The translations under genes were made by a program, and so were the position numbers. Below, one piece after another: positions 16,162-26,104 of a stretch of DNA of 40,309 nucleotides (the stretch's first letter is position 1; each line of letters starts with the position of its first letter). The stretch is from Candidatus Kuenenbacteria bacterium (GTDB lineage Bacteria; Patescibacteriota; Patescibacteriia; UBA2196; GWA2-42-15), in contig JAAZMX010000036.1 of NCBI GenBank assembly GCA_012798565.1, positions 1 through 40,309 on the forward strand, in the 5' to 3' direction. Under the pieces are notes generated by a model. It searched no databases, had not been told where the DNA came from, and saw nothing but the letters and a program-made list of their open reading frames with translations.

Positions 16162-17159
16162 ATGAGTAAGACAAGTAGAACAAATAGAGAACGGCATGTG
16201 GCCCTAGAAGGGTATTTCATGTATCTCAAAGAAACAGCCAAGCTTGTTGATCCTTATGTATATACACATATTGAAAAACAGTTTGGGCAACTACCTTGGC
16301 TGAAGGGCCTAATTATCGACCGATATCGCTTCGGTCAACCACAGCTTAGACCAGCAACAGTACGTATGGCATATGAACTTGCTGGTGGTAAAGACTGGCA
16401 ACAGATTATACCCCTTTGCGCAGCGATGGAAGTCAAAGATACTGGGTATTATTGCTTCGATGAAATGCTTGATGTATCTGGTATTAGCGAATCTCTATTA
16501 ATGACTGGCTATTCTACCATAATATGGTATGGACAATGCTCAATGATCTCCCCTACCCTACAAAGTTGATTACTCAAGTTCGCCAAGCAATTCATGAGTT
16601 GGATCTCGATAACATGAATGGAATTAAAATTGAAACCGAGATGGCAAAAACCAAGTGCATGAATGAAGCGCTATATATGGAAAGGGTTAAGGGGTATAAC
16701 TTCTGGGAGCATGTGTTCCATGCAGGCGCCATCCTGGCACAAGCAAACGCCGAGATAATAGCACTAATCCAAAAAATAGGCCAATTTATAGGTATTGCAT
16801 ATATAATTGCGAGTGATACTTATGAATTTGGCAAAAATAATCTTGAGGATTTCCAATCTGGAAAAATTACCCTGCCTATCATTCATGCGCTTAAACAGAC
16901 GAATTCTGACGACATACAAACTCTCAAATCTTTGCATGGACGGAAGCTTACGACTGAGCTTCAAGAAAAAATTTGCCTAATTATGGTCAAGTGCGGGGCA
17001 ATCGACTATGGGAAGAGTGTAGCAAGAGAATGGTGCCAACAGGCCTTAAATCTTCTAAGGGAATTCAAAGATTCGCCAGTAAAAAATATCATCGAATTCT
17101 CCACCACGATAACACAACGCAACCGGTATTATACTAAACTTGAAACTTATCGAGAATAA
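16162..17159 (+). pseudogene. Polyprenyl (trans-isoprenyl) diphosphate synthase homolog, frameshifted, with degenerate Asp-rich motifs
   Basis: Two overlapping ORFs (16162-16569, 16524-17159), offset by -1. Blocks alignable to IspA: LRP..GG..AA.E, FARM position = FDEMLD, SARM position = SDTYE, GK.TLP, C-terminal ITQRN. AAGGAG SD 7 nt upstream of the ATG. Confidence 0.6.
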
Positions 17160-17309: not shown

Positions 17310-17594
17310 TTACCCCCAAAAAGCTTCTAAGAAAGCCTTAATTGAACTCTCTAAATTATTTGTATCATGAGGGAAACCCAACGAACCATAAACCTTGTTC
17401 GGGGGATTAATCCCAGCCCATACTAAGGCTCTAATATAAGCCTTGTAAAAAGCTTCAAAAGCATCCCCATCCGAGGCAACCGCTCTCCTCCGCACAGTCG
17501 TTTGCCCCACCCGAAGATAAACCACTACCGAAATTGAAAAAAGCCTGCCAGATACTCCATGATGGATAGTGTACTTTATTATCTTGCCTTTCAT
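17310..17594 (-). CDS. Small protein (94 aa), possible stand-alone LeuA/CimA-type regulatory (LeuA_dimer-like) domain
   Basis: Strong SD AAGGAGGA (17599-17606). By-eye match of YTIHHGVSG..SISVVVYLRVG..AVASDGDAFEAFYKA to the LeuA C-terminal pattern Y.VVSG..A.ASVKL..G..AA.GNGPVDA.YQA. Confidence 0.55.
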   Translation of the reverse strand: MKGKIIKYTIHHGVSGRLFSISVVVYLRVGQTTVRRRAVASDGDAFEAFYKAYIRALVWAGINPPNKVYGSLGFPHDTNNLESSIKAFLEAFWG

Positions 17595-17612
17595 GGCATC
17601 CTCCTTTTCGTT

Positions 17613-17705
17613 AAACCCAAAAGACCTTCCACTACTGTGGAAGGCCCGGTTATTTATGTTAACTATTTTTCTTTTTATCTTAAGTTAAACAAAAACCTTC
17701 CACAG
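17613..17705 (-). promoter_or_regulatory. Three-arm attenuator (antiterminator/terminator), Ile unit
   Basis: In minus-strand order: arm1 ctgtggaagg (17705-17696), arm2 ccttccacag (17644-17635), arm3 gtggaagg (17632-17625), then tcttttgggttt (17624-17613). Arm2 pairs with either arm1 (10 bp) or arm3 (8 bp). Confidence 0.7.
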
Positions 17706-17760
17706 TTAACTGGGAAATAATAATCGCAATAATAATGCTGTTTCTGTGAAAGTTTTGCAT
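17680..17760 (-). CDS. Ile-rich leader peptide MQNFHRNSIIIAIIISQLTVEGFCLT
   Basis: 26 codons. Six ATT Ile codons within seven positions. The ATG lies 9 nt after the predicted -10. The ORF runs through arm1 and stops 14 nt beyond it. Confidence 0.6.
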   Translation of the reverse strand: MQNFHRNSIIIAIIISQLTVEGFCLT

Positions 17761-17769
17761 AATGAATAT

Positions 17770-17797
17770 ATTCTACTATACCTAGTTTTTTTGTCAA
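17770..17797 (-). promoter_or_regulatory. Sigma70-like promoter of the Ile unit
   Basis: TTGACA (17797-17792), 16 nt, TAGAAT (17775-17770). Shares the 14-mer ttttttgtcaaata (plus strand) with the promoter at 18.19 kb. Confidence 0.6.
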
Positions 17798-17839: not shown

Positions 17840-18007
17840 TTACTTCTCCGCTGCCCCTAATGTGATTCTTGCTCCGGTATGGTGAGCAAATTCAGATCGC
17901 AAGTTGGTGCCACAAGCAGAGCATCGGCCCTTGTCATTAATCACAGTTTCTTTTTGACAGTTGGGGCACTGCACCTTCTTGCCATTCTCATCTCTTGGCT
18001 CTTGCAT
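17840..18007 (-). CDS. Small zinc-ribbon protein (55 aa)
   Basis: MQEPRDENGKKVQCPNCQ..x11..CSACG (CxxC-x11-CxxC). ATG at 18007 preceded by GAGGGA at a 7-nt spacing. The ORF-track TTG at 18043 lies in the terminator U-tract. Confidence 0.6.
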   Translation of the reverse strand: MQEPRDENGKKVQCPNCQKETVINDKGRCSACGTNLRSEFAHHTGARITLGAAEK

Positions 18008-25398: not shown

Positions 25399-25424
25399 AA
25401 ATTAAAATTTTTTTACTCAAATAT

Positions 25425-25453
25425 ATTATATCGCACCGTTTAGCACTCGTCAA
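25425..25453 (-). promoter_or_regulatory. Sigma70-like promoter of the hrcA operon, overlapping CIRCE
   Basis: TTGACG (25453-25448), 17 nt, TATAAT (25430-25425). The -35 lies in the CIRCE spacer. A second candidate is TTGACA(25498-25493)-16-TATATT(25476-25471). Confidence 0.65.
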
Positions 25454-25466
25454 GTCTGAGTGCTAA
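25440..25466. promoter_or_regulatory. CIRCE operator (HrcA binding site)
   Basis: Perfect consensus TTAGCACTC-N9-GAGTGCTAA. Confidence 0.95.
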
Positions 25467-25537
25467 TTTAAATATATCACCTCCCAAAATTCTGTCAAAC
25501 CCAATAAGGCATGATTAATTCTAAATCAAAATATCAA

Positions 25538-25635
25538 AAGGCTGCCGATCTTTTCCAGGGCTCAGAAATTCTTTGAGTTTAATCCGAGATGTGTCGGACA
25601 TTGATTTCTGAGCCCGTTTTTTAATCGGCAGCCTT
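25538..25635. ncRNA. Candidate structured RNA: nested double 12-bp hairpin
   Basis: Outer stem aaggctgccgat / atcggcagcctt (25538-49 / 25624-35). Inner stem gggctcagaaat / atttctgagccc (25558-69 / 25604-15). Apical stem tccga/tcgga. T-runs follow on both strands. Confidence 0.35.
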
Positions 25636-25739
25636 CTGACTTAAAATATTAAATTTTAACCCTAAATATTATAACGCCAAAAACAAAACTCGGCAAGAGT
25701 CAAAAATCCCTTTGACCAATTTTGGCCAAAGGGATTTGA

Positions 25740-25931
25740 TTAAATTAAATAATTTGGAGGTTAAAGTCCACCATGGGTGGATTATTAACCATGGATAATA
25801 GCATGACTATAAAAAGGTGTAATGTAAGCTAAAAGCTTTATTACTAAAAATACTAATCAGCTGGTTAAATCCAGTCGAAACCAAATTATAACCAGTAACT
25901 AATATTTAAACCTCCAAATTACTTAATTTAA
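25740..25931. ncRNA. Candidate structured RNA or MITE-like element closed by a ~26-bp inverted repeat
   Basis: ttaaattaaataatttggaggttaaa (25740-65) against tttaaacctccaaattacttaatttaa (25905-31), with one mismatch and one indel. At least three internal hairpins. Confidence 0.35.
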
Positions 25932-26104
25932 CTCTGTTCTAGCTATTTTATTGTCAATTCAAAATATTATAACATATATATAAAATCTTGTCAATAGAAA
26001 ACAACAAAAAATATCTACTTAACCAAAAATTTTAACTAATTTTAGCCAAAATAAAAAACAGACAAAAAAATCAATTTTATCTGTTTTTTATTCTTTATTT
26101 CTTA

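Follow-up and report, generated by a model that had tools for sequence, protein, structure and literature searches.

The stretch of DNA analyzed here (hereafter the window) comprises 40,309 nucleotides (nt) of a Candidatus Kuenenbacteria bacterium from the phylum Patescibacteriota (contig JAAZMX010000036.1 of assembly GCA_012798565.1, positions 1 to 40,309), and it carries two short transcription units in tandem, whose features are all read on the minus strand. The downstream one, which we call the Ile unit (17797-17257), contains a promoter, a short open reading frame (ORF) with a run of isoleucine codons, RNA segments that can pair in alternative ways, a terminator-like hairpin and a gene for a 94-amino-acid (aa) protein. 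The Leu unit, lying directly upstream, has leucine codons in its leader ORF and encodes a 55-aa zinc-ribbon protein. An earlier note on the window had proposed for the Ile unit a leader-peptide attenuator with the logic of the enterobacterial leaders. We analyzed this candidate element by comparing four species-level lineages of one Patescibacteria clade, namely the window and the loci L001, L007 and L016. The gene order is common to all four loci, with DnaJ, a 190-aa gene, Dus, the region of interest, tRNA-Tyr and Fpg following one another.

The Ile unit begins with the promoter TTGACA (17797-17792), a 16-nt spacer and TAGAAT (17775-17770), which gives 11 of 12 matches; this promoter and that of the Leu unit are the two best promoter matches within the first 20 kb of the window. 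The leader ORF MQNFHRNSIIIAIIISQLTVEGFCLT, of 26 codons and a stop, spans 17760-17680, and its ATG at 17760 lies 9 nt past the end of the -10 element, so that the mRNA would be near-leaderless. Codons 9-15 (17736-17716) form the run ATTATTATTGCGATTATTATT, consisting of three ATT codons, one GCG and three more ATT codons, that is, six ATT in seven positions. This run has no other match in the window even when 2 mismatches are allowed, and 0.03 matches would be expected by chance as judged from shuffles. When at least five identical residues in six were looked for, just two intergenic short ORFs were found in the 40-kb window, the Ile and Leu leaders, which lie 400 nt apart. Both the promoter and the isoleucine-rich ORF had been described in the earlier note and are confirmed here.

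The same note had described three pairing arms, arm1 CTGTGGAAGG (17705-17696), arm2 CCTTCCACAG (17644-17635) and arm3 GTGGAAGG (17632-17625), followed by a terminator, a Shine-Dalgarno sequence (SD) and the 94-aa ORF. All of these are present, but the element has four segments rather than three, and its antiterminator is longer than had been thought. Segment 1 (CTTTCACAG, in RNA CUUUCACAG; 17752-17744, codons 3-6) is a protector that pairs with CUGUGGAAG in segment 2. Segment 2 (17706-17686) is an extended arm1, composed of the core ACUGUGGAAGGUUU (17706-17693) and the extension UUGUUUA (17692-17686), and the leader stop codon UAA is found at 17682-17680. Segment 3 (17656-17634) is likewise an extended arm2, with UAAAUAA at 17656-17650 and GGGCCUUCCACAGU at 17647-17634, and segment 4 (17632-17613) consists of GUGGAAGGUCU (17632-17622), corresponding to arm3, and an interrupted U-tract, UUUGGGUUU (17621-17613). 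The terminator-like hairpin formed by segments 3 and 4 (17647-17622) has 11 pairs and is followed by TTTGGGTTT. The SD AAGGAGGA (17606-17599), one of the few strong SDs in the window, follows 15 nt further on and precedes the 94-aa ORF (17594-17310), and the unit ends with a strong intrinsic terminator, a 12-base-pair (bp) stem with U7 (17292-17257).

The fold of the Ile leader is more stable than those of dinucleotide shuffles (z = -3.0). Helix 1:2 keeps 8-9 of its 9 bp in the four lineages, with a hairpin energy of -11 to -15 kcal/mol; the 2:3 antiterminator has 14+7 bp and -23 to -25 kcal/mol in every lineage; and the 3:4 terminator hairpin has 11 bp and -18 to -21 kcal/mol. The last two are mutually exclusive, since segment 3 is common to both, and the downstream SD is unpaired in either state. 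A helix GUUAACUGU/AUAGUUAAC in the minimum-free-energy (MFE) fold of the window's Ile leader was set aside, as the other lineages do not have it. The 2:3 helix is completely paired in all four lineages (14/14 in the core and 7/7 in the extension), and so is the 3:4 stem (11/11), in which the three substitutions are all pairing-neutral (G.U to A-U, G.U to G-C and U-A to U.G).

The whole Ile unit is present in all four known lineages, as four leader variants, and a search by DNA pattern for more leader copies in genome and metagenome collections returned the same four variants only. The Ile leader is 87-88% identical in nucleotide sequence between the genomes, a level not reached by DnaJ, Dus and Fpg on either side, which are 74-76% identical. 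For the pair of L016 and the window, identity is 88.5% over the leader as against 75-76% over the housekeeping genes around it, and the 94-aa gene has diverged too far for alignment. Alignable sequence starts just upstream of the -35 element, and lineage-specific insertions are found further upstream. A scan of the window and of the relatives' loci found no further leader-peptide units. Several candidates were rejected: matches to the DNA pattern in Pseudomonas, in Gemmatimonadaceae and in two repeat arrays are due to chance; the "209-aa gene" that some records (for example that of L001) annotate ahead of the 94-aa gene is a spurious call that reads across the leader; and the plus-strand ORFs lying over the Ile leader (17559-17720 and 17569-17688) do not keep their frame and length in L016.

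The Leu unit has a promoter TTGACA-17-TAAAAT (18197-18169) and an ATG 6 nt past the end of the -10 element, so that its mRNA would be leaderless. Its leader ORF MIRNSQNLALLLLGLRQFG (18162-18103) has 19 codons and a stop, with the Leu codons at 18141-18118. The attenuator RNA (18147-18035) is composed of segment 1 (18147-18128), within which the Leu codons lie, segment 2 (18116-18097), which contains the stop codon UAG, segment 3 (18070-18058), segment 4 (18053-18044) and UUUUUGGUUUUU, reaching to 18035; the pairings are 12+6 bp for 1:2, 13 bp for 2:3 and 10 bp for 3:4. An SD GTGAGGGA (18022-18015) and the 55-aa zinc-ribbon ORF (18007-17840) come next, and the terminator of this ORF (17830-17800) abuts the Ile promoter. 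The Leu leader peptide reads M....Q(N/K)L(A/S)LLLL(E/G)(L/Y)(K/R)QFG across the four lineages, and the changes at its Leu codons are synonymous (CTC/CTT and TTA/TTG) except for one Leu to Tyr at the edge.

The Ile and Leu units can be aligned end to end, from the promoter through segment 2 and the A-rich spacer AUAAAAAGAAAA to segments 3 and 4 and the broken U-tract, and they are therefore paralogues. When the antiterminator was compared in homologous columns, 97.3% of the positions were paired over the eight sequences, and 6 of the 14 pairs had changed on both sides; in the control, in which the partner strand was slid by 1-3 columns, pairing fell to 26-47% with 0-2 double-changed pairs. As the eight sequences are related, this covariation traces back to a single duplication, after which six positions diverged with compensation. 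There is strong evidence, at the level of the alignment, that the 2:3 helix is under selection. The Ile and Leu 3:4 hairpins also use homologous segment-3 columns, with four positions changed on both sides by hand tabulation, and they are one column out of register because their loops differ in size (4 vs 7 nt).

The effect of a translating ribosome was modeled with a mask that extended from the first A-site nucleotide over 15 nt on the upstream side and 12 nt on the downstream side. In place of a test on the full-length Ile leader, which did not discriminate, we folded the transcript at the decision point, where segment 3 has emerged and segment 4 has not. With the ribosome stalled at any codon of the run, 2:3 was fully formed in 8/8 leaders, and the earlier proposal that a stall at the Ile codons leaves arm1 free for the antiterminator is borne out in this respect. 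With the ribosome at the stop codon, 2:3 was abolished in 4/4 Leu leaders. In 3/4 Ile leaders the fold weakened from about -25 to about -12 kcal/mol, below the stability of the terminator; 8 of the 10 core pairs were left in the window and L016, none in L001 and 10/10 in L007, and the extension was lost in 3/4. Of the 10 nt of arm1, a ribosome at the Ile stop reaches just the 3' edge, although it does cover the 7-bp antiterminator extension, and a ribosome translating codons 19-26 covers arm1. The claim of the earlier note that a ribosome at the stop covers arm1 thus holds in part, through the 3' edge and the loss of the extension in three of the four Ile leaders, and fails in L007. For the Leu unit, the equilibrium mask test on the full-length leader gave the textbook pattern in 3/4 lineages.

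Of the explanations weighed here, the one that the computed evidence supports best, and which we consider likely, is that the Ile element responds to charged tRNA-Ile as a leader-peptide attenuator of transcription mediated by the ribosome. Transcription would start at the leader AUG or no more than about 3 nt from it, and a ribosome would translate the 26-codon ORF while RNA polymerase is still transcribing the leader. When Ile-tRNA is plentiful, the ribosome would pass segment 2 and reach the stop codon; segment 3 would then pair with segment 4, and the hairpin with its U-tract would cause termination ahead of the 94-aa gene. Under a shortage of Ile-tRNA, the ribosome would stall on the six AUU codons, with its leading edge just short of segment 2, so that segment 2 would pair with segment 3 as soon as the latter emerges, and no terminator would form. 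The antiterminated transcript would extend into the 94-aa gene, which would be translated from its strong SD. Taken together, the two tandem units would then let a Patescibacteria cell, presumably auxotrophic, respond to starvation for branched-chain amino acids.

Several points weigh against this interpretation. The evidence is computational throughout, the attenuator being read from sequence and folding. The Ile stop codon lies about 13-14 nt past arm1 (19 nt in L007), and a ribosome there only partly blocks the antiterminator; in L007, in which the stop is 6 nt further downstream, 2:3 is retained. When the whole Ile leader is folded at equilibrium, no mask removes the terminator from the MFE structure, and a forced antiterminator is about 3 kcal/mol worse than the terminator fold; as the two states are nearly isoenergetic, the switch must be kinetic, as in classical systems. 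When no ribosome is present, 2:3 and not 1:2 is the MFE structure in 7/8 leaders once segment 3 is available, and with a protector weaker than 2:3, readthrough would be the probable outcome for untranslated transcripts, unlike in the trp paradigm. The U-tract of the Ile unit, UUUUGGGUUU, is broken by GGG, and that of the Leu unit is broken likewise. The comparison is made among just four closely related lineages, because of which the covariation within each unit is thin, and the covariation signal comes mostly from a single paralogue split. Finally, the targets are not seen to serve the sensed amino acid as those of classical attenuators do. They are not genes for amino-acid biosynthesis, transport or aminoacyl-tRNA synthetases (aaRS), so that the independent physiological link to isoleucine amounts to a resemblance in predicted fold that is below significance.

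The control codons themselves argue for specific sensing. The start codon, the frame and all six Ile codons of the Ile leader are invariant in the four lineages, the sole substitution at the Ile codons of the run being a synonymous ATT to ATC, and the Ala that interrupts the run is replaced by Ser in one lineage. Residues 2-5 vary freely, and the C-terminus is frameshifted in L007. Such a pattern of variation is the one expected if only the control codons and the reading frame matter, and the orthologous leaders thus keep the Ile run, the ORF, its frame and the alternative pairings on which the earlier note relied. It could be supposed instead that the two units are general translation-stress sensors, induced by any slowing of elongation (antibiotics, general starvation, cold), and that the runs are merely hydrophobic or slow. 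The architecture indeed needs only a ribosome that lags behind the polymerase, and the targets have no demonstrable link to Ile or Leu metabolism. However, each paralogue keeps a run of one amino acid in four lineages, and changes within the runs that are only synonymous, next to residues that vary, are hard to explain without codon-specific sensing; moreover, no Ile codon is used more often in this genome than ATT, which is not a slow one. We therefore regard a general stress sensor as unlikely.

Translation of the leader ORFs would have to proceed without an SD, because the -10 element is only 6-9 nt upstream of the ATG. In the window, an SD is present at about 5 of the 42 ORFs, and a -10-like hexamer ends 6-9 nt before the ATG at 13 of the 42, LigT (15937) being among them with TTGCCA-17-TAGAAT-6-ATG; the two genes that stand behind the structured leaders are among the few with good SDs. 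The scarcity of SDs and the frequency of ATGs close to a -10 element make leaderless or SD-independent initiation look normal here, that of the near-leaderless Ile leader included, and suggest that it may be widespread in this genome. Judged from promoter geometry, the mRNA would start at the start codon of the sensory ORF. Leaderless sensory short ORFs with codon runs are established in mycobacteria (bioRxiv 10.1101/834739).

These features bear on the possibility that the switch does not depend on translation at all, and that a protein or a small ligand, for which the 94-aa product itself is a candidate, decides between the structures while the short ORFs are incidental. The alternative 2:3 and 3:4 pairings exist regardless of leader translation, the fold search with the 94-aa protein described below also lists RNA binders of the double-stranded RNA-binding domain (dsRBD), ribosomal S5 N-domain and HPF types, which score nearly as well as the best matches (E 0.05-0.3), and the sequence likeness of arm1 and arm3 extends beyond the stem. 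This last point is explained by the extended 2:3 helix, and such a switch leaves unexplained the conserved ATG 6-9 nt after the -10 element, the frame, the position of the stop and the codon runs. Nor does Rfam recognize a known element of this kind: over the whole window, a tRNA is the only match at the gathering score; for the Ile leader, the best leader family is Phe_leader with 19.4 bits against a gathering score of 55 (E 1.7); and for the Leu leader, no relevant match appeared at a permissive threshold. A translation-independent switch seems to us quite improbable.

The conserved ORFs, whose stretches IIIAIII and LALLLL are hydrophobic, could also encode functional micropeptides, such as membrane peptides or type I toxins, in which case the hairpin would be a leaky terminator and the 94-aa gene would be expressed by constitutive readthrough. 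With 7-13 residues, however, the hydrophobic stretch could not span a membrane, the residues at both ends of the peptide drift, with the C-terminus frameshifted in L007, and a conserved, covarying antiterminator that competes with the terminator would be left unexplained, which makes this possibility very unlikely. Least probable of all is that the units are non-functional relics of an ancestral ilv/leu operon whose biosynthetic genes were lost in genome reduction: although the organism belongs to a reduced-genome lineage and the product faintly resembles the LeuA/CimA regulatory domain, the leaders have diverged less than the housekeeping genes beside them, the pairings are kept through substitutions, the promoters are the best in the region, and both the zinc-ribbon and the 94-aa ORFs are intact in four lineages.

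If the Ile element is an attenuator, its output is the 94-aa protein, which matches no Pfam, NCBIfam, PADLOC or PHROG family at threshold. Among about 15 billion proteins, its only relatives are P0001 (90% identity), P0002 (87%) and P0003 (39%). A word-indexed search returned 2 clusters, and an exhaustive HMMER search of 1.84 billion representatives added only P0003 and P0004, the latter of which was rejected as a probably spurious repeat-protein match. A profile search for distant homologues yielded nothing further, the one match of a sequence search of the PDB, over 22 residues to colicin S4, is due to chance, and a product search of a viral fold library gave no meaningful match.

AlphaFold models of the 94-aa protein (predicted local distance difference test score, pLDDT, 81; predicted template modeling score, pTM, 0.76) and of P0003 (pLDDT 83.5) both show a beta-beta-beta-alpha-alpha arrangement; the two models are not independent, because one alignment underlies both. 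For both models, the best PDB folds are the regulatory domains of Mycobacterium tuberculosis LeuA and of a Leptospira citramalate synthase crystallized with isoleucine (TMq 0.51-0.53, root-mean-square deviation about 3 Å over 59-66 columns, E 0.04-0.05), and Foldseek gave no match at E<=0.001 for either model. The LeuA allosteric domain PF08502 is the only Pfam family that registers, with 13-14 bits against a cut-off of 24.9 (E 0.05-0.1); this sub-threshold match is given by the three near-identical members and not by P0003. With hhalign, the probability was 4.6% (P 0.009) against 19 LeuA domains and 0.13% against E. coli LeuA alone. We take a structural relationship of the 94-aa protein to the LeuA/CimA regulatory domain as a lead that is below significance, with roughly even odds of being correct. 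The description of the product in the earlier note as a tiny non-biosynthetic protein therefore stands as far as families are concerned, but the protein may be related to a Leu/Ile-binding regulatory domain.

The LA domain of LeuA consists of two beta-beta-beta-alpha units, and the 94-aa protein, as modeled, has one such unit and an extra helix. Domains of this type (PF08502; PDB 1sr9, 3f6g and 3f6h) are the best fold match for the window protein and for P0003, and the isolated LA domain of CimA binds isoleucine as a stand-alone dimer or tetramer (PMC13381585). The divergence of the 94-aa gene is mosaic: the protein is 87-90% identical among three lineages and 39% identical in L016 (4001-4288), with the adjacent leader at 88%, and all four lineages are about equally distant in the genes flanking it. 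This could reflect either accelerated evolution or an allele replacement starting about 17 nt into the gene.

The product of the Leu unit matches only generic zinc-ribbon models, its PADLOC and PHROGs matches being generic zinc-ribbon noise. The corresponding ORFs lie at 17840-18007 in the window, at about 2470-2645 in L001, at 2300-2497 in L007 and at 3342-3512 in L016. These miniproteins keep the CxxC...CxxC pattern and are otherwise very different among the lineages, and the Leu leader is well conserved.

Some other features of these loci and of the window were observed. Insertions rich in inverted repeats lie between the zinc-ribbon terminator and the Ile promoter in L001 (2700-2790), L007 (2550-2780) and L016 (3545-3780) and are absent in the window lineage. 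The L007 and L016 copies lie in a block of 87% identity, with neighboring coding genes at 74-77%; as the block is more identical than its coding neighbors, it suggests a mobile element resembling a miniature inverted-repeat transposable element (MITE) or a recent exchange. Convergent with the 94-aa gene, on the plus strand, a polyprenyl synthetase (16162-17159) is broken up into a 135-aa and a 211-aa ORF that overlap, and PF00348 is matched by the second only. Such a gene is not called at this position in L001, L007 and L016, and that of the window may be a frameshifted pseudogene.

Further along the window, on the minus strand, a promoter of consensus type TTGACA-17-TATAAT with a TG (25994-25966) precedes an RNA of about 230 nt (25700-25960) with a long closed fold (MFE -89.5 kcal/mol, z = -9.7) and a terminator hairpin at its end, for which Rfam gave no family match. 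Near-consensus promoters are found on the same strand at 25696-25668, 25498-25471 and 25453-25425, and upstream of a 227-aa gene lies another candidate structured RNA, which has a long hairpin AGAAGGCUGCCGAU...AUCGGCAGCCUUUU at about 25640-25535. The promoter-rich region 25399-26104 contains structured RNAs and no leader peptides. Among unrelated metagenome contigs, L030 (about 1500-1760) carries tandem CCGTCCAC-GCGY-GTGGAAG stems, each followed by a T-run and CTTGACA, and L029 (about 1000-1250) carries hairpin arrays of CCTTCCAC/GTGGAAGG; both are chance matches to the arm pattern.

We know of almost nothing on gene control in Patescibacteria, and a full-text literature search found no paper on leader-peptide attenuation in this phylum. 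If the attenuator interpretation is correct, the two units would provide a rare handle on regulation in Patescibacteria and would show that ultra-small, presumably auxotrophic symbionts monitor tRNA charging directly. Two uncharacterized proteins would then be likely effectors of amino-acid starvation, and the units would form a compact natural pair of orthogonal amino-acid sensors of about 170 nt each, as well as a clean natural experiment on how attenuator specificity and helices co-evolve after duplication. A more specific picture, which we find doubtful at present, is that a host-dependent cell that does not make branched-chain amino acids uses the two leaderless attenuators as Leu and Ile starvation sensors and that their outputs are effector miniproteins, one a zinc ribbon and the other a free-standing, Ile-binding descendant of the LeuA/CimA domain acting in feedback or in signal relay. 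In that event, an organism without the usual pathways would be answering amino-acid starvation in a way not known before.

Leader-peptide attenuation is a textbook mechanism, known for biosynthetic, transport or aaRS genes in bacteria that make amino acids. The closest counterparts are the enterobacterial leaders of leuL-leuABCD (where leuL of E. coli lies upstream of leuA), ilvL-ilvGMEDA, ivbL-ilvBN and trp, which likewise have a leader ORF with clustered codons, four segments and a terminator before the first gene, with the stop codon in or next to segment 2. The clustered-codon ORF, the exclusive 2:3 and 3:4 pairings and the intrinsic terminator just upstream of the regulated gene are all found in the Patescibacteria units. 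The geometry of the Leu unit is a nearly exact copy of that of the enterobacterial type, and this nearly canonical paralogue supports the enterobacterial logic that the earlier note had assigned to the Ile unit. The Patescibacteria units differ in the phylum in which they occur, in leader ORFs that lack an SD and begin 6-9 nt past the -10 element, and in having as targets a 55-aa zinc ribbon and a 94-aa orphan where the enterobacterial ones have biosynthetic enzymes; no Rfam leader family covers them. The Ile unit differs further in having its control codons in the loop that separates segment 1 from segment 2, and in its weak protector.

Leaders that sense Leu, Ile or Val through a short upstream ORF, as proposed here, are also found in Gram-positive bacteria and actinobacteria, and examples include the Leu-rich attenuator of Staphylococcus aureus ilv-leu (PMC5794164), the Listeria ilv leader with Rli60 (PMC5864092), the upstream ORF of Corynebacterium ilvBNC (PMC10272879) and further actinobacterial attenuators (PMC1262725). 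Those leaders control biosynthetic operons in organisms that produce the amino acids, whereas here no such operon is attached and two units, each for a single amino acid, lie in tandem. The polycysteine "Cys ribulon" of mycobacteria, as reported (bioRxiv 10.1101/834739), is similar in that a leaderless short ORF with a codon run is both the first cistron and the sensor, and in that several independent units depend on the amino-acid supply. It is described there as acting on translation, stalled ribosomes blocking a structure that sequesters the downstream ribosome-binding site, and as targeting loci of Cys metabolism. In the Patescibacteria units, by contrast with that description, the antiterminator competes with a terminator hairpin and its U-tract, and neither state hides the SD. 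Thus the kind of mechanism proposed here is already known, and what is new is the phylum, the leaderless sensor ORFs, the tandem Leu/Ile pair and the non-biosynthetic targets.

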